DNA of 34,955 nucleotides from a virus: the UHGV virus genome UHGV-0055450, one strand, 5' to 3'. The notes under the pieces were generated by a model. It did not search any database. It saw only the letters and a program-made list of their open reading frames with translations, and had not been told where the DNA came from. Positions 1-34,574 of the stretch are shown here, in pieces. The stretch's first letter is position 1. Each line of letters starts with the position of its first letter. The translations under genes were made by a program, and so were the position numbers.

Positions 1-526
1 AGCACACGTCATCAAATCTCACCACAACGTGGGCGGCCTGCCGAAAGAGATGAAGATGGGCCTGGTTGAACCGCTGAAAGAGCTGTTCAAAGACGAAGTG
101 CGTAAGATTGGTCTGGAGCTGGGCCTGCCGTACGACATGTTGTACCGTCACCCATTCCCGGGACCAGGCCTTGGCGTTCGTGTGCTGGGTGAAGTGAAGA
201 AAGAGTACTGTGACCTGCTGCGCCGTGCTGACGCCATCTTCATTGAAGAACTGCGTAAAGCGGACCTGTACGACAAAGTCAGCCAGGCGTTCACTGTGTT
301 CCTGCCGGTACGTTCCGTTGGCGTAATGGGCGATGGTCGTAAGTATGACTGGGTTGTCTCTCTGCGTGCTGTCGAAACCATCGACTTTATGACCGCACAC
401 TGGGCGCATCTGCCGTACGATTTCCTCGGTCGCGTTTCCAACCGCATTATCAATGAAGTGAACGGTATTTCCCGCGTGGTGTATGACATCAGCGGCAAGC
501 CGCCAGCTACCATTGAGTGGGAATGA
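1..526 (+). CDS. guaA: GMP synthase, C-terminal fragment (5' end lies outside the window)
   Basis: Frame-2 translation ...[26 protein letters not shown]...[12 protein letters not shown] is the conserved C-terminal end of enterobacterial GuaA; reading frame is open to the window edge. Confidence 0.9.
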
Positions 527-572
527 TTAACAGCTAACTCATAGCAAATCATTCCTATTCAGATGCCAACTC

Positions 573-661: not shown

Positions 662-676
662 TTACCTTAAAGGTAT
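662..676. promoter_or_regulatory. Operator-like palindrome TTACC-N5-GGTAt (one mismatch) upstream of the integrase gene
   Basis: TTACCttaaaGGTAT; member of the dispersed TTACC-N5-GGTAA family, 43 bp upstream of the integrase start. Confidence 0.45.
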
Positions 677-2167: not shown

Positions 2168-2826
2168 GCAGCACGCTCCCGCCCCTGGTTGTCTGTTGGT
2201 GACAGCGGAGCATTGCTGAATGCATTTGTTAATCCGCCAATATCCAACGCGTATCCAGGGTGTAGTTGCACTGCCGGGTCTTCGCACTGATTACCCCAAA
2301 CATCGAAGCCATGAGACGTCTGGCGGGCGAACAGTTCAATGCGAGAAACATCGCCTAATAATTGCACAAGTTTTTCACGAACGACATCTGGTTTTCTTGA
2401 ATGCTCAAGCCGCGGTGCGGTAAATGACTGAACGATACCTGCATTAATGCGCGGAGGTAGTTTTCCCTTTACCGCAAACAGGCAATCTTCACTATTGGCG
2501 CGAGTCATGTGTCCCATACCCATAACCAGTTTATCTGGTTGTCGACTACCACATTTTATCCACGTGAAGCCCTTCATGGTCATCAGACGGAATCCCCAGG
2601 CTTCAACAACTTTTAGTGCTTCGAGTGGTTGTGTTGGCACCCACCACATGGCCAACAGACAGTTTTCACCGGCCAAATCCCACACAGGAAGGCGGCAGAT
2701 ATCCAGCACACTCATAACCGGATATTTAAAACCGGCACCGCGATTACCATCTGTGGCTTTGTCCCGGTATGCCCAGGGTGGATCTGCATAGATTAGTGTG
2801 TATTTCTTAGTCATAAACCACCCCAC
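2164..2826 (-). CDS. DNA N6-adenine methyltransferase, MT-A70-like (orphan)
   Basis: DPPW catalytic motif in LIYADPPWAY near the N-terminus; no restriction endonuclease gene adjacent. The likelier start is the ATG at 2814 (MTKKYTLIYADPPW). Confidence 0.8.
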   Translation of the reverse strand: MGWFMTKKYTLIYADPPWAYRDKATDGNRGAGFKYPVMSVLDICRLPVWDLAGENCLLAMWWVPTQPLEALKVVEAWGFRLMTMKGFTWIKCGSRQPDKLVMGMGHMTRANSEDCLFAVKGKLPPRINAGIVQSFTAPRLEHSRKPDVVREKLVQLLGDVSRIELFARQTSHGFDVWGNQCEDPAVQLHPGYALDIGGLTNAFSNAPLSPTDNQGRERAA

Positions 2827-3106
2827 AACATCCTATGCCGCTATAGTCGCCACGGCGAAGTCCGTTACCTTTTGTGATACATTGGTCCCTGCGAATCGCG
2901 ATCCTTGCACGTTCAACATCACCAGAAGCAACATCCATACACTGAAGCCAAAGGTGGGCGGCAATGCGGAACTGCCCTTTTTTCTCTCTTTCAATCGCGC
3001 GTTTTTCGATCTCTATCGCCGCAGGAGTAACGGCGACAATCTTTGACGGACTGCGCATTGAAACCTTATTCATGTGATATTTTTCAAGTCGGCTTAACTT
3101 TCTCAC
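2807..3106 (-). CDS. Hypothetical protein (99 aa)
   Basis: ORF in the leftward operon between the AlpA-like gene and the methyltransferase; GTG start preceded by GAGGG; no recognisable motif. Confidence 0.4.
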   Translation of the reverse strand: MRKLSRLEKYHMNKVSMRSPSKIVAVTPAAIEIEKRAIEREKKGQFRIAAHLWLQCMDVASGDVERARIAIRRDQCITKGNGLRRGDYSGIGCCGVVYD

Positions 3107-3215: not shown

Positions 3216-3464
3216 TCATGCCGCGTTGCTCACGGGACGATATACACGTTGCTGAACAGGAGGTTTTTTACCCTGGAACTCTGCCGGGCTTGCTGCCTGA
3301 CGTTCATCAAGCCAACGCTCAACTTCATCACGGTTCCATGCGCAGCGTTTATCGGTGATATACCAGCGTTTAGGAAATTCCCCTGCGCGCTCCATACGGT
3401 CGATAGTGCTCCATGACAGTGGAACCACCGCCAGGAGTTCCTTCTTACCTAATGCACCTTTCAT
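3216..3464 (-). CDS. AlpA-family DNA-binding protein (putative excisionase or transcriptional regulator)
   Basis: 82 aa; LLAVVPLSWSTIDRMERAGEFPKR...WNRDEVERWLDER fits the AlpA/Xis-type helix-turn-helix pattern. Confidence 0.6.
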   Translation of the reverse strand: MKGALGKKELLAVVPLSWSTIDRMERAGEFPKRWYITDKRCAWNRDEVERWLDERQAASPAEFQGKKPPVQQRVYRPVSNAA

Positions 3465-5273: not shown

Positions 5274-5569
5274 GCCGCGTCCCTCTGTCCATCAAGCTGA
5301 TCCGCCAGATCCCAGCGGGCGATAATTGCCATTGCCTCTCGCCGATAGGCATCCATCAGTTCTTCGAACTCAGGGCTGTCTTTAGCAGCCTCCAGTACTT
5401 CCTGACGAACGCCTTTGCCTGTTACAACGTCGAAAGTTGAGGACAGTTGATGAAGCCGGATGCTCTCAATCAGTTCAACTTGTCGGTCATATAGCTGTTC
5501 TGACAGGCGGTAGTCCTTGTCGAATGCCAGCATGATTTTTTGAAGATTTTTCTGCTGATTAACGTTCAT
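5270..5569 (-). CDS. Hypothetical early protein (about 99 aa)
   Basis: MNVNQQKNLQKIMLAFDKDYRLSEQLYDRQVELIES...; the ATG at 5569 is preceded by GGGAGGG; the stop overlaps the exonuclease start (ATGA). Confidence 0.45.
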   Translation of the reverse strand: MNVNQQKNLQKIMLAFDKDYRLSEQLYDRQVELIESIRLHQLSSTFDVVTGKGVRQEVLEAAKDSPEFEELMDAYRREAMAIIARWDLADQLDGQRDAA

Positions 5570-5571
5570 TA

Positions 5572-5724
5572 TCAGCCCTCCCATATCTCGTTATCGTTGG
5601 CCACATCGCGAGCTTCTTTGCTGACGAAAGCCCACTTAATACCTTCCTGTAAGGTGCGGAACTTCCAGCTCATGAATCCGCATGCAGTAACGCAGTACCA
5701 ACCGTTGATGATTTTCCACTGCAT
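5572..5724 (-). CDS. Hypothetical small Trp/Cys-rich protein (50 aa), first gene of the leftward early operon
   Basis: Hand-translated MQWKIINGWYCVTACGFMSWKFRTLQEGIKWAFVSKEARDVANDNEIWEG*; GAGGT sits 9 nt upstream of the ATG; below the length cutoff of the supplied ORF track. Confidence 0.4.
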   Translation of the reverse strand: MQWKIINGWYCVTACGFMSWKFRTLQEGIKWAFVSKEARDVANDNEIWEG

Positions 5725-5743
5725 AACTTGTTACCTCGGTCTG

Positions 5744-5820
5744 TTACCGTTGAGGTAATAATTATGCGTATTTGGTTTGATGTCAATAGATATGAGTTAA
5801 AAAAATTACCCATCAGGTAA
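5744..5820 (-). promoter_or_regulatory. Leftward early promoter region with two operator palindromes (OL-like)
   Basis: Perfect TTACCgttgaGGTAA (5744-5758) and TTACCcatcaGGTAA (5806-5820) flank a perfect -35 TTGACA on the minus strand (plus-strand tgtcaa, 5781-5786). Confidence 0.5.
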
Positions 5821-5832
5821 TAGTACAGGCAA

Positions 5833-5855
5833 TAAAAAAGCCGCCAGAAGGCGGC
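5833..5855 (-). terminator. Rho-independent terminator after the repressor gene
   Basis: Minus strand reads GCCGCC-TTCT-GGCGGC followed by TTTTTT. Confidence 0.6.
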
Positions 5856-5877
5856 TTACTTACTGAAAAGTATGATT

Positions 5878-6462
5878 TTATTGTTTGTTTTTTTCGTTCT
5901 GGTTGATGACAAATTCAATGTAACTTTCGATCTTTGCTTTCTCGGTTTCGGGTAACAATGCGTAGCGCGAGCGGTCATAGTTGATGGTCGCAGGGTCGTG
6001 CGGGTGAATCAGTAATTCATAGCCGTGACGCCCGAATGCGGATGCAACATTCTCCAGGGTGGAAATGGAAACGCTGACCTCATTGTTTAACAGGCGGCTG
6101 ATTGTCACCTGGGCGACGCCGGATGCGCGGTGAAGTTTTCCCTGTGTTGAAAGGTCGCGGCTTTCGCTCATCCAGCGTTCCAGGTTGTGAGCCGCCAGCT
6201 GACCAATGTCGCTTGGGCCGACAGGCTGAAAACCTTCCTGAGAAAGCGAGCGATCGATATCAAGCCAGTTACGGGGTTTATTGGCGGCAGCTTCAATTTT
6301 TCGCGCAACCTGGTCGCCGATAACCTTCTTGCCAAGAGCCCAGCGGTTTACCAGATTTGCCTGAGTTCCAAGTTTTTCTGCCATCCGCGTCTGAACACCA
6401 TTGAATTCACGGTCGATCAAGTCGTTGAGATTTTGCCTGCGGACGTCCTGGATACTTTTCAT
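5878..6462 (-). CDS. CI-like prophage repressor with two helix-turn-helix regions and no recognisable LexA-type autopeptidase domain
   Basis: 194 aa; HTH-like segments QTRMAEKLGTQANLVNRWALGKK and ASGVAQVTISRLLNNEVSVSISTLENVASAFG; no Ser/Lys peptidase motif seen; divergent from the cro-like gene across an operator-rich spacer. Confidence 0.75.
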   Translation of the reverse strand: MKSIQDVRRQNLNDLIDREFNGVQTRMAEKLGTQANLVNRWALGKKVIGDQVARKIEAAANKPRNWLDIDRSLSQEGFQPVGPSDIGQLAAHNLERWMSESRDLSTQGKLHRASGVAQVTISRLLNNEVSVSISTLENVASAFGRHGYELLIHPHDPATINYDRSRYALLPETEKAKIESYIEFVINQNEKNKQ

Positions 6463-6517
6463 TTTCTGGAAAATCGCCTCATATATGAATCAGTAGATGA
6501 TTCAATTTAAAGCAATA

Positions 6518-6580
6518 TTACCCAACAGGTAAATGCACCTCATAGGTAACTATCCTTGATTTTTGTTACCTTATGGGTGA
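6518..6580. promoter_or_regulatory. Tripartite operator and divergent promoter region between repressor and cro (OR-like)
   Basis: TTACCcaacaGGTAA (6518-6532), GcACCtcataGGTAA (6535-6549), TTACCttatgGGTgA (6566-6580). Rightward promoter: -35 TTGTTA (6563-6568), 17-bp spacer, -10 TATTAT (6586-6591). Confidence 0.6.
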
Positions 6581-6616
6581 ATATTTATTATCTGAAATAA
6601 ATATCAGGCAATAGCT

Positions 6617-6847
6617 ATGAGCGATAACGGACATTTCGATTTCAAAAAGCACTGGCTTGCACTTACTCCGGATGAGCGTGAAGCCTTCGCACAGGAAGCC
6701 GGAACGACGAGTCACTATATCCAGACTCACTTAACAGGTAAGCGCAAAATGCCAGGTAAAGTATTGATGAATGGGCTTTTTAAAGCCTGTAAAACAAGAC
6801 AGTGGTTGCGCTCAAAAGCAGAACTGGCATACTTCTTCTACTCATGA
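6617..6847 (+). CDS. Cro-like small DNA-binding regulator
   Basis: 76 aa, divergent from the repressor; HTH-like segment EAFAQEAGTTSHYIQTHLTG; position equivalent to cro. Confidence 0.6.
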   Translation: MSDNGHFDFKKHWLALTPDEREAFAQEAGTTSHYIQTHLTGKRKMPGKVLMNGLFKACKTRQWLRSKAELAYFFYS

Positions 6848-6868
6848 TATCCAGCTACACCCCTCTGT

Positions 6869-6893
6869 AGACCGCCACCCGGCGGTCTTTTTA
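6869..6893 (+). terminator. Rho-independent terminator after cro (tR1-like)
   Basis: AGACCGCC-(ACCC)-GGCGGTCT followed by TTTTT. Confidence 0.65.
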
Positions 6894-6902
6894 TATCTAT
6901 TC

Positions 6903-6917
6903 GTACCTCAAAGGTAA
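6903..6917. promoter_or_regulatory. Operator-like palindrome gTACC-N5-GGTAA between cro and the downstream genes
   Basis: GTACCtcaaaGGTAAtaaaaa lies immediately after the cro terminator; the right half overlaps a TAATAA -10-like hexamer. Confidence 0.4.
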
Positions 6918-6997
6918 TAAAAAACCAAATATGGTTGATCTTTTTTTTGTGTCAGCACAAAATGACCGTAATCCCAATACTAATAACAGGGCTTACC

Positions 6998-7198
6998 ATG
7001 GAAATCATTACACGTATTGATGCCGCAAAGCGCGGACTTAAACGCTACTACACCGGAAAAACATGTAAGCACGGACATGACAGTGAACGCTGGGTTTACA
7101 ACGGACACTGTGTTGAGTGCACCATGGAATCAAACCGTCGTATCAGGGCAGAGATTAAGCAGATCATGATTAATTCCTCCCCACAACATTCAAGCTGA
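6998..7198 (+). CDS. Hypothetical small Cys/His-rich protein (about 66 aa)
   Basis: MEIITRIDAAKRGLKRYYTGKTCKHGHDSERWVYNGHCVECT... has a zinc-ribbon-like C-x-H-x-H ... C-x2-C pattern; the track ORF starts at 6935 but the ATG at 6998 is the likelier start. Confidence 0.4.
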   Translation: MEIITRIDAAKRGLKRYYTGKTCKHGHDSERWVYNGHCVECTMESNRRIRAEIKQIMINSSPQHSS

Positions 7199-7213
7199 TA
7201 GCGGAGATTAATC

Positions 7214-8029
7214 ATGAGCAGACATGCAACAGATTGGGCCTGGGAGACAGATCCAGGTAGCTCGTCATTAAAGCTCATACTGCTCTCGATGGCTGACAGA
7301 GCCGATGAATATAACCTCTGCTACCCCAGCATAGAACGCCTCGTTAAAGACACTTGCCTGAATAAAAAAACCGTGCAGGCCGGGCTTATATCGCTCATGA
7401 AAATGGGGCTTATTTCAGATACCGGAGAGAGAAAGGGAGCGACGAAAAGAGTGCGGGTTTTCTCTCTTAATATAACCAAAAACGGGAACATTAAAGGCAA
7501 CCGGGAAGGGGGTAATGAACCCGAAAACGGTAATGTTACCGAAAACGGGAATATACCCAAAAACGGGATGTTGAATGATCCCAAAAACGGGATGTTGAAT
7601 GATCCCAAAAACGGGATCCAGAACCAGTCATATAACCAGTCATTTAACCAAGAGAGGGAGAGCAGGACAAAAACCGGGGATTCTGTGCCTCATGACCCCG
7701 GCGCAAACAACGCCGTGATGAATAACTTTGTTCCTCCTGGTGGGCCAGGGAAATTAGGCAAATTTGTCATGCATGAACAATGGCAGCCATCAGATGACTT
7801 TCTTCGGAAAAGCTCATTGCAGGGGATCTACCTGGACAGTCTGCCAACGGCACAGGAACTTGCAGAGTTCAGAATTTACTGGATGGCTGAGGGTAAGGCA
7901 TACCATCAGGCACAGTGGGAGCAGAAGCTGGCAAGGCGGCTGCAGATTAGCAGACAGAAGCAATCAACATTACCTGATAACAACGTTCCGCACTGGAACA
8001 GCCCTGAAGCGTGGGAGGATTTCTTGTGA
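7214..8029 (+). CDS. Replication initiator, lambda O-like
   Basis: N-terminal HTH-type initiator region (LKLILLSMADRADEYNLCYPSIERLVKDTCLNKKTVQAGL); a central Asn-rich repeat peptide encoded by the iterons; sits immediately upstream of the P-like gene. Confidence 0.7.
   Translation: MSRHATDWAWETDPGSSSLKLILLSMADRADEYNLCYPSIERLVKDTCLNKKTVQAGLISLMKMGLISDTGERKGATKRVRVFSLNITKNGNIKGNREGGNEPENGNVTENGNIPKNGMLNDPKNGMLNDPKNGIQNQSYNQSFNQERESRTKTGDSVPHDPGANNAVMNNFVPPGGPGKLGKFVMHEQWQPSDDFLRKSSLQGIYLDSLPTAQELAEFRIYWMAEGKAYHQAQWEQKLARRLQISRQKQSTLPDNNVPHWNSPEAWEDFL
7476..7620. repeat. Iteron array (putative replication origin) inside the O-like gene
   Basis: At least six direct copies of CCAAAAACGGGA / CCGAAAACGGTA with 18-24 bp spacing, including tandem 21-bp units CCCAAAAACGGGATGTTGAATGAT; three GATC sites. 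Confidence 0.65.
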
Positions 8030-8848: not shown

Positions 8849-8925
8849 TTACCTATAAGGTAACAAAATATTCTAAACTCTATTGATTTCGTGTCTTATG
8901 TGGTTTTTAATTACCTTAGAGGTAA
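8849..8925. promoter_or_regulatory. Two operator palindromes between the P-like and DUF1064 genes
   Basis: Perfect TTACCtataaGGTAA (8849-8863) and TTACCttagaGGTAA (8911-8925); the second ends 3 nt before the DUF1064 start codon. Confidence 0.5.
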
Positions 8926-12141: not shown

Positions 12142-12415
12142 CCTGCAACTAGCTGTCAAAGGTGAATACTTCGATGCCATGATTCGCGGAGAGAAAACGG
12201 AAGAGTATCGCCTGTGTAATGACTACTGGAATAAGCGAATTATGTTCCGGGAATATGACCGCCTGATTATCACAAAGGGATATCCGAAGCGTGACGATTC
12301 CAGCCGCAGAATTGACGTTCCGTATGGCGGCTATGAAATCAAGACAATCACACATCCGCACTTCGGCGATAAACCGGTAAAGGTGTTCGCGATAAAGGTA
12401 AATATTGATGGCTAA
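12134..12415 (+). CDS. ASCH-like domain protein
   Basis: GTG start with AAGGAGG upstream; VKGEYFDAMIRGEKTEEYR resembles the ASCH G-x-K-x2-E-x-R core. Confidence 0.5.
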   Translation: MANLQLAVKGEYFDAMIRGEKTEEYRLCNDYWNKRIMFREYDRLIITKGYPKRDDSSRRIDVPYGGYEIKTITHPHFGDKPVKVFAIKVNIDG

Positions 12416-12746
12416 ATCAGCAGCAGAGCGCAAAGCCGCTCAGAGAGCCAGACAAGCTGCATCTGGTGTGCGTAAGCTGGAGATTGTGCTTGATGCTCAG
12501 GAAATTGAAATGCTTGAGCGTAACTGTGCCGCGCGTCGCCCCGGGCGTGCGCCTTACGAATTTGGTGAGTATATAGCGTTACTGATCCGCCAGGATGATG
12601 CACGCGTGCGCGGGCGTATAAAATCGATCAGCAGAAAACGTTGCGGTAAGTGCGGCGAGAGAGTTCCAGTTAATTCATGCCCGTGTAATGGTGACTCGCA
12701 ATGCTGGGTGACTAAAGGCTGGCATGAAACGAAATTAATAGTGTGA
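12408..12746 (+). CDS. Hypothetical protein with Cys-rich C-terminus
   Basis: MAKSAAERKAAQRARQAASGV... with C-terminal CGKCGERVPVNSCPCNGDSQC; AAGGT upstream of the ATG at 12408. Confidence 0.45.
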   Translation: MAKSAAERKAAQRARQAASGVRKLEIVLDAQEIEMLERNCAARRPGRAPYEFGEYIALLIRQDDARVRGRIKSISRKRCGKCGERVPVNSCPCNGDSQCWVTKGWHETKLIV

Positions 12747-12832: not shown

Positions 12833-12847
12833 TTACCACAACGGTAA
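12833..12847. promoter_or_regulatory. Operator palindrome upstream of the small terminase gene
   Basis: Perfect TTACCacaacGGTAA; a second partial copy TTACCacggtGGTtA (12851-12865) abuts the start codon. Confidence 0.5.
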
Positions 12848-12864
12848 CTATTACCACGGTGGTT

Positions 12865-13461
12865 ATGATGCTTGCTGAACCTAAAACCTATAAACGCAAA
12901 TCAACGCAATTTAAGCCACTAACAGCAATGCAGGAGGCTTATTGCCAGTCATACATCAAAACGCCTGAAAACCAGACTCAGGCAGCGATTAACGCAGGAT
13001 TCTCCCCAAATACAGCGGCAGTTAAAGCCAGTGTCATGATGCGCGATGAACGCATTCAGAAACGGATTGCCGAGTTGATGGAGGAGCGCAACAAACGAAT
13101 GCGCGTCAGTGCTGATTACGTTCTCATGCGCCTGGTGGAGATCGACCAGATGGACGTGATCGACATCCTCAACGACGATGGGAGCCTTAAACCAATCCGT
13201 GAGTGGCCGAAAATCTGGCGCACTACGCTTAGTGGCTTTGATCTGTCATCGACCATCATGAACATGAACGAGGATTCGATAGAGACAATCCTCAAAAAAA
13301 TTAAATGGCCTGACAAGGTGAAGAACCTTGAGCTGATTGGTAAGCATGTTGATGTCAACGCGTTCAAAGAACGTCTGGATGTTAATGTGAATGTGACAAT
13401 TGCTGATCGCATAGCAGCAGCCAGGAAGCGACTCAAAGAACGTCAGGATGGTAATCAGTGA
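12865..13461 (+). CDS. Terminase small subunit
   Basis: LTAMQEAYCQSYIKTPENQTQAAINAGFSPNTAAVKASVMMRDERIQKRI fits small-terminase HTH families; directly upstream of and overlapping the large terminase. The track ORF start at 12787 would include the terminator and operator, so the ATG at 12865 is preferred. Confidence 0.65.
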   Translation: MMLAEPKTYKRKSTQFKPLTAMQEAYCQSYIKTPENQTQAAINAGFSPNTAAVKASVMMRDERIQKRIAELMEERNKRMRVSADYVLMRLVEIDQMDVIDILNDDGSLKPIREWPKIWRTTLSGFDLSSTIMNMNEDSIETILKKIKWPDKVKNLELIGKHVDVNAFKERLDVNVNVTIADRIAAARKRLKERQDGNQ

Positions 13462-15593: not shown

Positions 15594-15670
15594 TGGCGTG
15601 GCATGCAGGATTCGAACCTGCGACCAACCGCTTAGAAGGCGGTTGCTCTGTCCAACTGAGCTAATGCCAC
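15594..15670 (-). tRNA. tRNA-Arg (anticodon UCU), phage-borne variant
   Basis: Reverse complement GTGGCAT-TA-GCTC-AGTTGGACA-GAGC-A-ACCGC-CTTCTAA-GCGGT-TGGTC-GCAGG-TTCGAAT-CCTGC-ATGCCAC-G-CCA folds as a cloverleaf with a 7-bp acceptor stem, TCT anticodon and encoded CCA. Body resembles argU; stems differ. Confidence 0.85.
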
Positions 15671-15992: not shown

Positions 15993-16007
15993 TTACCTGA
16001 AAGGTAA
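15993..16007. promoter_or_regulatory. Operator palindrome upstream of the virion gene cluster
   Basis: Perfect TTACCtgaaaGGTAAtaattt; the right half overlaps a TAATAA -10-like hexamer. Confidence 0.5.
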
Positions 16008-16097
16008 TAATTTGTGCGTTAAATGTCAACTATCTACGATAAATAAATCATATGTGGTTAAATTGGTAATAATTTAATTGCGTACGGAGTCATTGAT

Positions 16098-32849: not shown

Positions 32850-33017
32850 CTATTTGGAGCGAAATGCCGCCTTGAAGTCGCTGAAAGATGTTCCTGTCTG
32901 GTAAACCATATCCTTGTCGCGCTCTTTGCTTGCGCGGCCAAGCATAACTTTTCCAATGACATCCCAGCATTGCTTGGCTTGTTCATTGTGCTGAGTACGA
33001 TTTTTCAACGCTGTCAT
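32850..33017 (-). CDS. Hypothetical small protein (55 aa)
   Basis: Hand-translated MTALKNRTQHNEQAKQCWDVIGKVMLGRASKERDKDMVYQTGTSFSDFKAAFRSK*; AAGGAGG lies 6 nt upstream of the ATG; below the track length cutoff. Confidence 0.4.
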   Translation of the reverse strand: MTALKNRTQHNEQAKQCWDVIGKVMLGRASKERDKDMVYQTGTSFSDFKAAFRSK

Positions 33018-33029
33018 ATCGCGCCTCCT

Positions 33030-33044
33030 TTACCTTTAAGGTAA
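33030..33044. promoter_or_regulatory. Operator palindrome overlapping the RBS of the 55-aa gene
   Basis: Perfect TTACCtttaaGGTAAtagtac; on the minus strand its half-site runs directly into the AGGAGG Shine-Dalgarno. Confidence 0.5.
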
Positions 33045-33115: not shown

Positions 33116-33808
33116 TCAGAAGAACCCAGCCTTGTCGTTGATGTACTCCGCGTGTGTCTGGATATCACGCAGGCATTTGCTCACACCGACGATGTAGCAG
33201 AACATGGTGGTCAGCTCCGCCGCCGCGCCCGATACGTCGTGCCCGTCGTCCTGTAACTGGTTCAGCAGATTCATCAGCAGTGAGTTCTCCGTCAGGCCGA
33301 GAACACCAGACGGCGAATGAATCAGGCTGCGGTAGCCGGGCTTCAGCGGGGCGCTGTAGGTTTTGTTCTCTATCTTCATTGCCTGCATCACTGCTGATGC
33401 TGTGGCGTTTGCAACCTGGTCGGCAACCATCTTTATGCGTTCTTCCTGCGGGAGCGAGTTTTTAATGTAACTTCCGGTGCGGCGGATCTGAGGAAGAACC
33501 TCACCTGTAACCCATTCAAGAAATCTGAATGCTCTCGTTCCCTCAGTCATTGCCTCTTTGCAACGCAGAATAAGGATGTAGAGACCTGATTCTGAAACGA
33601 TGGATAGTTCTTGTATTCCACCAGGGGTCTGTATTGAATACAGCCCCTTTTTGTTCCAGCCTTTTTTATCAAGTTTTCTCGCTTGTGTAACATCAATATT
33701 CAAAGCATTGCACACATCTTTGGTGACAAACCAAGGTTCTCCGTCAATCATGAACATACGGATCTGGCAGGATGACTCAAAGGAAAAGATGGAAGGTTTG
33801 GTATTCAT
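33116..33808 (-). CDS. ant: Antirepressor with N-terminal Bro-N-like domain
   Basis: MNTKPSIFSFESSCQIRMFMIDGEPWFVTKDVCNALNI fits the Bro-N/antirepressor N-terminal pattern; ATG at 33808 with AAGGTGA upstream. The track ORF extends to 33853. Confidence 0.75.
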   Translation of the reverse strand: MNTKPSIFSFESSCQIRMFMIDGEPWFVTKDVCNALNIDVTQARKLDKKGWNKKGLYSIQTPGGIQELSIVSESGLYILILRCKEAMTEGTRAFRFLEWVTGEVLPQIRRTGSYIKNSLPQEERIKMVADQVANATASAVMQAMKIENKTYSAPLKPGYRSLIHSPSGVLGLTENSLLMNLLNQLQDDGHDVSGAAAELTTMFCYIVGVSKCLRDIQTHAEYINDKAGFF

Positions 33809-33962
33809 GGCGATCACCTTTGTAGTTAGGTTAATCACCACCGCTGAGACCAATCAGATGGTGGTGAACTGTGCAGAGTTGGTCTTACCGGCTACAAAGG
33901 AACCCGGCGCACCTTTCGGTGCCCCCACACAGCCCACCATAGAATAGGTGCGCTTTACACAT

Positions 33963-33981
33963 AAAAAAACCGCTTATGCGG
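33963..33981 (-). terminator. Weak rho-independent terminator upstream of ant
   Basis: Minus strand reads CCGC-ATAA-GCGG followed by seven T; short stem. Confidence 0.4.
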
Positions 33982-33994
33982 CATATGTGCCTCT

Positions 33995-34049
33995 GTAGTA
34001 ATCCGGGAGACCAATCCCGGCACTGGATTTTGCCAGTGCCCGATTACTA
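33995..34049 (-). ncRNA. Candidate structured regulatory RNA or attenuator between the two antirepressor genes
   Basis: Outer stem TAGTAATC / GATTACTA encloses two hairpins, GCACTGG-(CAAAAT)-CCAGTGC and CGGGA-(TTGGTC)-TCCCG, and is followed by the terminator at 33963-33981; no ORF. Confidence 0.25.
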
Positions 34050-34075: not shown

Positions 34076-34090
34076 TTACCGCAAAGGTAA
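34076..34090. promoter_or_regulatory. Operator palindrome between the Ant-paralog and ant
   Basis: Perfect TTACCgcaaaGGTAAatataag. Confidence 0.5.
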
Positions 34091-34121: not shown

Positions 34122-34379
34122 TTATCTGGTTTGTTTTCGTAATTGTTCGGCACAATAGTCGAGATGTGTTTGCAGATCCTGCATAGACATCTGTGAGCTG
34201 GTGACGTAGTTAATCAGTGCAGTCAGTTCGGCAAGTGGGCCATCGACATTAAATCCATCCTTATCGAGATCCCGGAGTAATTTCATCAAGTGCGATCCCT
34301 CCACCAGTGACCTGACGCCTCCCGGCGTGTGAATCCTTTCGGTAAATCCGTCTTCCAGTGGATAGTGATACTGCTGCAT
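34122..34379 (-). CDS. Small protein homologous to the antirepressor C-terminal domain (about 85 aa)
   Basis: SHLMKLLRDLDKDGFNVDGPLAELTALINYVTSSQMSMQDLQTHLDYC aligns with the Ant C-terminus SLLMNLLNQLQDDGHDVSGAAAELTTMFCYIVGVSKCLRDIQTHAEYI; ATG at 34379 with GGAGAAG upstream. The track ORF extends to 34397. Confidence 0.6.
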   Translation of the reverse strand: MQQYHYPLEDGFTERIHTPGGVRSLVEGSHLMKLLRDLDKDGFNVDGPLAELTALINYVTSSQMSMQDLQTHLDYCAEQLRKQTR

Positions 34380-34398
34380 CTTATCTTCTCCATGCAAT

Positions 34399-34418
34399 AA
34401 CTGTATATTTATACAGTA
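34399..34418. promoter_or_regulatory. LexA (SOS) box in the promoter of the leftward antirepressor operon
   Basis: AACTGTATATTTATACAGTA matches the consensus TACTGTATATATATACAGTA at 18 of 20 positions with the CTGT-N8-ACAG core intact; 20 bp upstream of the 34379 start. Confidence 0.65.
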
Positions 34419-34455: not shown

Positions 34456-34470
34456 TTACCCGAAAGGTAA
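34456..34470. promoter_or_regulatory. Operator palindrome between the ant operon and the tailspike gene
   Basis: Perfect TTACCcgaaaGGTAAtatctat. Confidence 0.5.
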
Positions 34471-34574
34471 TATCTATTCGTATTTACAGTCTTTCTATCC
34501 ATATGTGGTTTTTTGGGTAATAGAATAACCAGATATGCGGCGCAACGGGTGCTGCGACTATCTGGAGATTTAAC

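Follow-up and report, generated by a model that had tools for sequence, protein, structure and literature searches.

The immunity region of the viral genome UHGV-0055450, whose full 34,955 nucleotides form the window analysed here, holds a leftward repressor gene, rep, and a small rightward gene for a Cro-like helix-turn-helix (HTH) protein, separated by a spacer with three copies of a palindrome. Further copies lie beyond rep and elsewhere in the window, and the right end carries two antirepressor genes (Table 1). Judged by sequence comparison, the window is an E. coli prophage of the phiV10/epsilon15 type (Uetakevirus), inserted at guaA: it shares 98% nucleotide identity with phiV10, and positions 1–528 hold the 3' end of guaA and the ZX5 attachment core. 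The sequence anatomy, the homologies and the conservation of sites and spacings described below were established on the window itself, and every promoter is a consensus prediction.

Table 1. Features of the immunity system in the window.
Feature	Position	Strand	Basis and remarks
attL core	512–528
Operator copy, one mismatch	662–676		Between attL core and integrase gene; kept in epsilon15, SPC32H and PAS61
Operator OL1, exact TTACCGTTGAGGTAA	5744–5758		Centred on predicted +1 of leftward early promoter
Predicted PL-like leftward early promoter, TTGACA-17-AATTAT	5758–5786	-	Promoter scan, 10/12 consensus
Operator OL2, exact TTACCCATCAGGTAA	5806–5820		Centred ~62 bp upstream of predicted PL start
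Intrinsic terminator after rep	5838–5857	-	-16.6 kcal/mol, z -4.7; annotated in phiV10 too
rep, 194-aa prophage repressor	5878–6462	-	Pfam, match to PDB 5D50_A, identity with phiV10 gp40/ZX5 ORF21
Inferred PRM-like rep promoter, TTTACC-17-TTAAAT	6505–6533	-	By eye; -35 within O_A
Operator O_A, exact	6518–6532		Centre 6525; ~-27 of inferred PRM
Operator O_B, GCACC left half, 2 mismatches	6535–6549		Centre 6542; ~-44 of inferred PRM
Predicted PR-like rightward early promoter, TTGTTA-17-TATTAT	6563–6591	+	Promoter scan
Operator O_C, 1 mismatch	6566–6580		Centre 6573; overlaps -35 and spacer of rightward promoter
cro-like gene, 76-aa five-helix Cro/CI-type HTH protein	6617–6847	+	phrog_35, AlphaFold2
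Intrinsic terminator after cro-like gene	6869–6888	+	-15.0 kcal/mol, z -5.4
Operator-like site, GTACC left half, 1 mismatch	6903–6917		Upstream of next promoter; half-site kept in relatives
Inferred second rightward promoter, TTGATC-17-CAAAAT	6933–6961	+	Replication genes; conserved in five genomes
Operator pair, 62 bp apart	8849–8925		8849–8863 and 8911–8925; upstream of DUF1064 gene
Operator pair, 18 bp apart	12833–12865		Directly upstream of small terminase gene
Single operator	15993–16007		Upstream of portal operon; annotated in epsilon15
Single operator	33030–33044		Upstream of 55-aa gene at 32850–33017(-)
Second antirepressor, 230 aa, Bro-N and C-terminal Ant-like domain	33116–33808	-	ZX5 ORF4 counterpart
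C4 antisense RNA	33857–33944	-	Rfam gathering-score match
isrK RNA	33963–34039	-	Rfam gathering-score match
Candidate Rep operator	34076–34090		2 bp upstream of TTTACA-17-CATAGT promoter (by eye)
ant, 85-aa antirepressor homologue	34122–34379	-	PDB 5D50_E, E 4e-47
Predicted LexA (SOS) box AACTGTATATTTATACAGTA	34399–34418		18/20 consensus positions
Candidate Rep operator	34456–34470		Between ant and tailspike gene; equivalent epsilon15 site annotated as repressor-binding

A conserved palindrome, the probable operator

The palindrome is 15 bp long, TTACC-N5-GGTAA. Ten exact copies are present in the window against 0.04 expected, a number reached in none of 100 shuffles, and 36 copies have two mismatches or fewer (9.5 expected). 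The form with a six-nucleotide spacer, TTACC-N6-GGTAA, has no exact match in the window, fixing the spacer as N5. In five related genomes, a scan without prior assumptions returned this palindrome as the most over-represented inverted repeat, and operator positions and spacings (17+30/31, 62, 62 and 18 bp) are kept across them. The GenBank record of epsilon15 (AY150271.2) marks seven sites of the form ATTACC-N5-GGTAAT as 'protein_bind, repressor, lysogeny'. We read the palindromes as operators because they are enriched in five genomes, keep their position and spacing, and are annotated in epsilon15 as repressor-binding; at the sequence level, the proposal that they behave as Rep operators is supported.

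To the left of rep, the claim in the original prediction that two copies surround a perfect TTGACA held, with both copies exact and the hexamer in the promoter read at 5786–5758(-). OL1 is conserved in Tyrion, PAS61, epsilon15, SPC32H and BUCT711, and OL1 and OL2 are 62–63 bp apart in all five genomes compared. PL would drive the gene at 5572–5724(-) and the recE/recT operon.

In the spacer between rep and the cro-like gene, the three copies have centres 17 and 31 bp apart, as had been claimed, and one of them, O_C, does lie within the rightward promoter. An alternative -35 for this promoter, TTGATT at 6557–6562, is invariant in five related genomes; the operator overlaps the predicted rightward core promoter whichever -35 is right. 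At the position of O_B, epsilon15, SPC32H and BUCT711 hold an exact palindrome. The inferred PRM matches 8/12 consensus positions, under the scan threshold, and five genomes agree at most positions of both its hexamers. Of the spacer operators, the best, O_A, lies over this inferred rep promoter and not over PR, an order of affinity opposite to that in lambda.

Outside the immunity region, the operator pair upstream of the DUF1064 gene flanks a predicted TTGATT-17-TTTAAT promoter with the same -62/+1 geometry as at PL. The first copy of the corresponding epsilon15 terminase pair (12–27) is annotated as repressor-binding, and the second was found only by the present scan. A fixed-spacing search for a late-promoter-like motif stayed at chance level, with only a 9-mer core informative.

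The repressor and the cro-like gene

Rep residues 1–190 align with residues 2–197 of the SPC32H Rep chain (PDB 5D50_A; phmmer E 4e-42), and the two proteins, of which the latter is structurally solved, are 42% identical. Pfam finds HTH_3 in two stretches (best 106–147) and a YdaS/Cro-type HTH at the N-terminus (21–61), in line with the two HTH-like segments first noted in this 194-aa protein. Peptidase_S24 has no match in Rep in Pfam even at E<=1, nor in NCBIfam or PHROGs, which confirms the original claim that a LexA/CI-type peptidase is lacking. The tail after the second HTH is only ~45 residues long and aligns with the SPC32H tetramerisation tail, and no AG or CG dipeptide, and hence no Ala-Gly/Cys-Gly cleavage site, occurs in the Rep sequence. 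Without an S24 peptidase, Rep should be resistant to RecA-dependent cleavage; this part of the prediction is supported by that absence and by full-length homology to SPC32H Rep, which according to the literature is inactivated by an antirepressor and not cleaved.

The domains of SPC32H Rep have been named DNA-binding, middle dimerisation and C-terminal tetramerisation/Ant-binding (PMC9986798). By alignment, the N-terminal HTH of Rep alone should read DNA, the second HTH-like segment should be the counterpart of the middle dimerisation domain, and the C-terminal tail that of the tetramerisation and Ant-binding domain. Given the 42% identity, tetramerisation and Ant binding are transferred by homology; the residues aligned to the SPC32H interface residues Phe187 and Phe190 are Tyr and Phe, a conservative change. 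The putative recognition helix, NLVNRW, is invariant among Reps that are only 42–45% identical overall, which parallels the unchanged half-site.

Both phiV10 gp40 and ZX5 ORF21 are 100% identical to Rep. So are the 80 related loci returned from viral contigs, which are therefore useless for covariation, and phage records were compared by tblastn instead. According to the ZX5 paper, overexpression of this protein left less than 0.1% of the endolysin and holin transcripts (a drop of more than 99.9%) and no free phage, and on treatment with mitomycin C the titre of the phage rose from 1e7 to 1e9 PFU/mL.

The cro-like gene is the first behind the predicted rightward early promoter. Its product matches phrog_35, 'transcriptional repressor' (E 5.6e-13), and the AlphaFold2 model has five helices (pLDDT 86.9) with fold matches that are all lambda-repressor-like DNA-binding domains (YdaS, 434, P22 c2; TM ~0.6, weak E ~1). 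Searching the protein sequence against the PDB gave no match, and NCBIfam gave nothing informative. The intrinsic terminators claimed behind rep and the cro-like gene are both present (Table 1); the canonical T-tail of the latter is found in the window and in Tyrion, and not in epsilon15, SPC32H or BUCT711. Genes beyond this terminator appear from the sequence to have their own conserved promoter, which matches 8/12 consensus positions, under the scan threshold. No N- or Q-type antiterminator family matched any of the 25 early and accessory proteins scanned, in agreement with the original reading that no N-like gene is visible.

A predicted SOS-controlled antirepressor and a second antirepressor cassette

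If RecA does not cleave Rep, induction would need another route, as the original prediction had argued; a candidate for it, missed at the time, lies in the window itself in the form of an Ant homologue behind a LexA box (34122–34418). This protein is 88% identical to SPC32H Ant, and its gene is divergent from the tailspike gene, the position that ant has in SPC32H. The LexA-box core CTGT-N8-ACAG (CTGTATATTTATACAG, 34401–34416) precedes the ant start codon by 22 bp, and four relatives (epsilon15, SPC32H, PAS61 and BUCT711) have a LexA-like box at the same offset. Three other CTGT-N8-ACAG matches (6787, 15463 and 20005) were rejected as LexA boxes, being intragenic with cores less AT-rich than that at 34401.

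Downstream of ant lies a cassette encoding a second antirepressor. The protein matches Pfam Bro-N (E 1.8e-13), its residues 147–228 match the Ant family phrog_450 (E 4.8e-37), and it shares 40% identity with Ant. Directly upstream of the gene are the C4 and isrK RNAs (78.6 and 74.7 bits), and the predicted start of the TTTACA-17-CATAGT promoter coincides with the isrK 5' end. In the ZX5 paper, only the Bro-N protein is labelled an antirepressor, and overexpression of ORF4 lowered prophage numbers ~1000-fold and rep transcripts by 75%. The cassette is absent from PAS61, epsilon15 and SPC32H, all of which keep the layout of Rep, operators, Ant and LexA box, and we thus regard it as accessory.

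Comparison with known systems

The SPC32H Rep-Ant switch was reportedly worked out by Kim & Ryu 2013 (J Virol 87:11775) and Kim et al. 2016 (PNAS 113:E2480), and its structures are PDB 5D4Z and 5D50. SPC32H belongs to the same genus as the prophage in the window and has the same gene order, with rep between the leftward operon and a cro-like gene, ant divergent from the tailspike gene, the LexA box at the same offset, and the same operator half-sites and spacings. It differs in that its PL region has three operators against two here, O_B and O_C are weaker here, and it lacks the second antirepressor cassette (isrK, C4, Bro-N/Ant) that the prophage here adds.

Sites of the epsilon15 repressor, gp38, have the same palindrome at the terminase, portal and tailspike genes, at PL and at a RuvC-like resolvase gene in the position of DUF1064. 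Three further copies (33341, 33358 and 33388), unannotated there, lie in the rep/cro spacer of epsilon15, which has a different host and a different rep allele. The epsilon15 repressor and its binding sites are said to be treated in Kropinski et al. 2007. As for the nearest relatives, the phiV10 record already notes 'two helix-turn-helix motifs' in gp40 and both terminators, and ZX5 ORF21 silences lytic genes, but no operators, small Ant or LexA box are described in the phiV10 and ZX5 records or the ZX5 paper.

In its layout, the O_A/O_B/O_C array resembles lambda OR3/OR2/OR1: divergent PRM- and PR-like promoters surround three operators, the far side of the repressor gene has a leftward promoter, and a Cro-type HTH gene comes first rightward. 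Unlike lambda CI, Rep has no S24 domain and would, by analogy with SPC32H, tetramerise through a p53-like tail. Also unlike lambda, operators are placed before late and accessory operons too, the proteins scanned yielded no homologue of N or Q, and terminators seem to be bypassed through separate promoters and not by antitermination. The same logic of an uncleavable repressor and a small SOS-controlled inactivator is known from coliphage 186 Tum and the Gifsy antirepressors, which are LexA-controlled (PMC3121763). The second cassette is like P1/P7 immI (c4 RNA-ant) and Gifsy-1 isrK-orf45-anrP in that C4 or isrK RNAs precede a Bro-N antirepressor gene, and unlike them in having a C-terminal domain of the SPC32H Ant type and a cassette promoter with a Rep operator. 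Ant of the SPC32H type is reportedly distinct in structure from the 186 Tum and Gifsy antirepressors (Kim & Ryu 2013).

The proposed switch

We consider it very probable that the region is the lysis/lysogeny switch of a phiV10/epsilon15-type prophage and works like the SPC32H Rep-Ant system. The N-terminal HTH of Rep would read TTACC-N5-GGTAA, while the middle HTH-like domain would dimerise and the C-terminal tail tetramerise. During lysogeny, Rep would sit on O_C at the rightward promoter, on OL1 (about +1) and OL2 (about -62) at the leftward promoter, and on some ten further copies that precede the genes for replication, DUF1064, terminase, portal, tailspike and the two antirepressors. The lytic programme would thereby be shut off directly and as a whole, with no N/Q antitermination cascade. 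Upon DNA damage, cleavage of LexA would free the box before ant; Ant would then bind the C-terminal domain of Rep and break the tetramer, and Rep would leave the DNA. The cro-like HTH protein, as first product of the rightward promoter, would presumably keep rep expression low. For tetramerisation, for the binding of Ant and for repression by the ZX5 protein, which is identical to Rep, we draw on the literature on homologues, while the role of each site, looping, autoregulation and the role of Cro are what we infer from the arrangement of the sites.

It is conceivable, though improbable, that the Bro-N/Ant-domain protein, under the isrK and C4 RNAs as in P1 immI or at the Gifsy-1 isrK-anrP locus, is the main physiological inducer and the small LexA-controlled Ant secondary. 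Its Ant-like C-terminal domain, its place behind the two RNAs, and the effect of ORF4 on ZX5 prophage numbers and rep transcripts would all agree with such a role. However, the cassette is accessory, being dispensed with in PAS61, epsilon15 and SPC32H, and with a Rep operator on its promoter it should stay silent until Rep is inactivated, which suits an amplifier better than a trigger.

We think it very unlikely that the palindromes are mainly bound by the Cro-like or a host protein, or are promoter or terminator elements, and not Rep operators. Lambda Cro and CI share operators, a precedent for binding by Cro, and among the genomes sharing the palindrome the Cro-like protein (77%) is more conserved than Rep (42%). 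On the other hand, the annotation of epsilon15 attributes the sites to the repressor, the putative recognition helix of Rep is invariant wherever the half-site is, almost all lytic units have sites overlapping or flanking their predicted core promoter, and late genes fall silent in ZX5 when Rep is overexpressed. The palindromes are not terminators, since their 5+5 bp arms are AT-rich and lack a T-tract.

A lambda CI/LexA-type switch, in which RecA-stimulated autocleavage inactivates the repressor, is effectively refuted by the missing peptidase domain and cleavage site, the alignment of the short tail with the SPC32H tetramerisation tail, and the presence of a LexA-controlled Ant homologue; the mitomycin C inducibility of ZX5, with its identical Rep, would agree with it, though by itself this fits either mechanism.

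Within the Rep-Ant reading, the repression architecture may possibly be undescribed, a suggestion we make tentatively, in two respects: promoter micro-loops formed by Rep tetramers, and cross-immunity and cross-induction between phages of different host genera. Two independent predicted promoters (PL and DUF1064) each have an operator pair at about -62 and +1, and the 62–63 bp spacing recurs in phages of E. coli, Salmonella, Enterobacter and Klebsiella. A single Rep tetramer, its two DNA-binding pairs being formed in trans, could clamp each promoter in a micro-loop of about six turns, and pairs 17–18 bp apart could be filled side by side by Rep. How SPC32H Rep brings about repression at the structural level has, according to a 2023 paper, not been worked out extensively (PMC9986798). 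As the putative helix and half-sites are identical and the Ants 63–88% identical, these phages may be cross-immune and cross-inducible.

The non-cleavable repressor, the operator palindrome and the SOS-controlled antirepressor have all been described previously in close relatives, and the immunity system is already known; the observation is therefore correct yet ordinary. Its discovery value is small: work on SPC32H had already covered repressor, antirepressor and SOS link, the operators had been annotated in epsilon15, and the identical repressor was tested in ZX5. The immunity region is nevertheless carried by 561 of 5426 complete E. coli genomes, about one in ten, in which its genes are usually labelled just 'helix-turn-helix protein' or 'hypothetical protein'. 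The operators, LexA box, ant gene and isrK/C4/Bro-N cassette mapped here can be annotated directly in those genomes, and the conserved -62/+1 operator geometry offers a testable lead on how tetrameric Rep represses.

The operator and its prophage

The window opens in a host gene, E. coli guaA, whose 3' part is closed by the attachment core ATTGAGTGGGAATGATT (attL), the same core reported for phage vB_EcoP_ZX5 (ZX5); everything beyond position 528 is prophage. Positions 5400–7300 share 97.9–98.5% identity with phiV10, PAS61 and other Uetakevirus phages (77% with Enterobacter phage Tyrion) and were found in 561 of 5426 complete E. coli genomes. The prophage is therefore a common phiV10/epsilon15-like podovirus, and this region is its immunity region.

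When all 5+5 inverted repeats with spacers of 0–12 were counted without bias in five genomes, TTACC-N5-GGTAA ranked first in each. The window has ten exact copies, against 0.04 expected from shuffles, and epsilon15, SPC32H, BUCT711 and PAS61 have 11, 10, 9 and 8, respectively; a search of the window for the same half-sites with a six-base spacer returned no matches. Palindrome positions and spacings are kept across the five genomes. The rep/cro spacer holds a triple (17 and 30/31 bp; in the window the centres are 17 and 31 bp apart, as originally noted). The leftward promoter has a pair spaced 62–63 bp, and another pair, spaced 62 bp, stands in front of the DUF1064 or resolvase gene. The portal operon and the tailspike gene are each preceded by a single copy, and the integrase gene by a copy with one mismatch. 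Upstream of the small terminase gene, the window, PAS61 and epsilon15 have a pair spaced 18 bp, while SPC32H and BUCT711 have one copy or none there. The epsilon15 GenBank record labels seven of its palindromes 'protein_bind, repressor, lysogeny', and the invariant islands in the five aligned rep/cro spacers are the half-sites and a TTGATTTTT block.

Features of the window
Feature	Position	Strand	Remarks
guaA, 3' end	1-528		host gene
attL core	512-528
Rep palindrome	662-676		one mismatch; between attL core and integrase gene; kept in epsilon15, SPC32H, PAS61
PerC-like regulator	2807-3106		leftward operon
AlpA-like regulator	3216-3464		leftward operon
Palindrome	start 5744		exact
Leftward promoter	5786-5758	-	TTGACA-17-AATTAT
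Palindrome	start 5806		exact
rep	5878-6462	-
O_A	6518-6532		exact
O_B	6535-6549		two mismatches
Rightward promoter	6563-6591	+	TTGTTA-17-TATTAT
O_C	6566-6580		one mismatch
cro-like gene	6617-6847	+
Terminator	6869-6888		after cro-like gene
Palindrome	start 6903		one mismatch
DnaT-like replication protein	7214-8029	+	short tandem peptide repeats (NGMLNDPKNGMLNDPKNG and several GN-rich repeats)
TATGTGGTT copies	8897-8905, 16051-16059, 34502-34510		exact
Regulator gene	12405-12746	+	PHROG 536 'transcriptional regulator', E 6.7e-55
tRNA-Arg (TCT)	15594-15670	-	between terminase genes and portal operon
Bro-N/Ant protein, 230 aa	33116-33808	-	directly downstream of isrK/C4
isrK + C4 antisense RNA	33857-34039	-	Rfam gathering-score matches, 74.7 (isrK) and 78.6 bits (C4)
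Cassette Rep operator	34076-34090		followed by predicted promoter
ant, 85 aa	34122-34379	-
LexA-box candidate	34401-34416

Repressor and SOS-linked antirepressor

The 194-aa repressor, Rep, was predicted to have two helix-turn-helix (HTH) segments and to lack an autocleavage domain. Two HTH-type matches were indeed obtained, and a Pfam search detected no S24 peptidase in Rep even at E ≤ 1. Rep can be aligned from end to end with the SPC32H repressor, whose crystal structure is solved (PDB 5D50 chain A, E 4e-42). That protein is described as binding DNA as a tetramer; its N-terminal domain contacts DNA, the middle one serves dimerisation, and the C-terminal one, p53-like, serves tetramerisation and is also where the antirepressor Ant binds (PMC9986798). 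By this alignment the second HTH (residues ~100–150) corresponds to the dimerisation domain and not to another DNA reader. The final 45 residues would correspond to the tetramerisation/Ant-binding tail; Phe187 and Phe190 of SPC32H align with Tyr and Phe in the window's Rep.

Rep shares 100% identity with phiV10 gp40 and ZX5 ORF21. Overexpressing ORF21 removes more than 99.9% of the transcripts for endolysin and holin and abolishes free phage. E. coli-type Rep is only 42–45% identical to the Salmonella and Klebsiella types; the putative recognition helix, NLVNRW, is invariant across these types, which fits the unchanged operator half-site.

The 76-aa Cro-like product of the first rightward gene matches PHROG 35 'transcriptional repressor', and its confident five-helix structure model resembles only Cro/CI-type DNA-binding domains, with weak E-values. 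Overexpression of an antirepressor in ZX5 reduces rep transcripts by 75%, consistent with positive autoregulation or repression by Cro. Identity to the SPC32H counterparts is 42% for Rep, 77% for the Cro-like protein and 88% for Ant, with no change in the operator half-sites.

The other induction route that such a repressor was expected to need very probably lies in the window. A scan for CTGT-N8-ACAG located CTGTATATTTATACAG, whose 20-mer agrees with the LexA-box consensus at 18/20 positions, and an 85-aa gene begins 22 bases downstream of it on the minus strand. Its product matches SPC32H Ant (PDB 5D50 chain E, E 4e-47, 88% identity). The order Rep operator, ~40 bp, LexA-like box, ribosome-binding site and ant, divergent from the tailspike gene, also occurs in epsilon15, SPC32H, PAS61 and Klebsiella phage BUCT711. 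Such Salmonella prophages are described as making an antirepressor once LexA has cleaved itself, and this protein inactivates the repressor through protein-protein contact (PMC3121763). ZX5 is inducible with mitomycin C. In the work of Kim & Ryu from 2013, SPC32H Rep reportedly escapes cleavage in the SOS response, and SPC32H is said to turn virulent when its LexA box carries a point mutation.

A second antirepressor cassette

Between the structural genes and ant lies an extra cassette that PAS61, epsilon15 and SPC32H lack. Its protein combines a Bro-N domain with a C-terminal Ant-family domain homologous to SPC32H-type Ant, and is the counterpart of ZX5 ORF4, which the ZX5 paper recognised as the sole 'anti-repressor'. 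The arrangement is similar to P1/P7 immI and Gifsy-1 isrK-anrP, and we predict that it forms a second antirepressor cassette under RNA control. The Rep operator at its promoter leads us to read it as an amplifier rather than a trigger.

Promoters and predicted wiring

Consensus scans recovered both predicted early promoters and an intrinsic terminator after each of the rep and cro-like genes, both folding well below shuffled controls. At the latter position the window and Tyrion alone have a canonical T-tail; in epsilon15, SPC32H and BUCT711 a GC hairpin remains but lacks a T-run, so termination there may differ between lineages. Every part of the original prediction held (palindromes, promoters, terminators and repressor domains): the feature is real and was correctly interpreted. 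As a member of a solved, annotated system, the switch is already known, not new.

Operator positions were counted from predicted transcription starts, and the wiring is inferred accordingly. Operators lie at ~+1 and -62 both at the leftward (PL-like) promoter and at TTGATT-17-TTTAAT before the DUF1064 gene, and O_C overlaps the core of the rightward (PR-like) promoter. A minus-strand rep promoter, TTTACC-17-TTAAAT, is proposed because it is conserved in all five phages; O_A (~-27) and O_B (~-44) would there resemble lambda OR3 and OR2 relative to PRM. After the cro-like gene's terminator, an operator-like site and a promoter, TTGATC-16/17-(C/A)AAAAT, are conserved in the five genomes.

The DUF1064 gene, the portal operon and the tailspike gene are each preceded by a copy of TATGTGGTT, a motif kept in epsilon15, SPC32H, PAS61 and BUCT711; every copy follows a Rep operator at a distance of ~35–50 bp and usually has GGTAATA 5–6 bp after it. 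No -35 hexamer is evident at these copies, so they may be activator-dependent middle or late promoters. The gene of the PHROG 536 regulator is the last one ahead of the terminase operators, a place that would fit an activator of late genes.

As predicted, no N-like antiterminator was apparent: none of 25 early and accessory proteins matched an N or Q family, and separate Rep-controlled promoters therefore appear to replace antitermination. The conserved operator geometry, with -62/+1 pairs at two promoters and 17–18 bp pairs elsewhere, may be undescribed and may reflect the two DNA-binding units of the Rep tetramer, a modest, testable lead. The comparisons suggest a rep allele that diverged, or was exchanged, inside an otherwise conserved switch, and cross-immunity and cross-induction among the E. 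coli, Salmonella and Klebsiella phages look possible.
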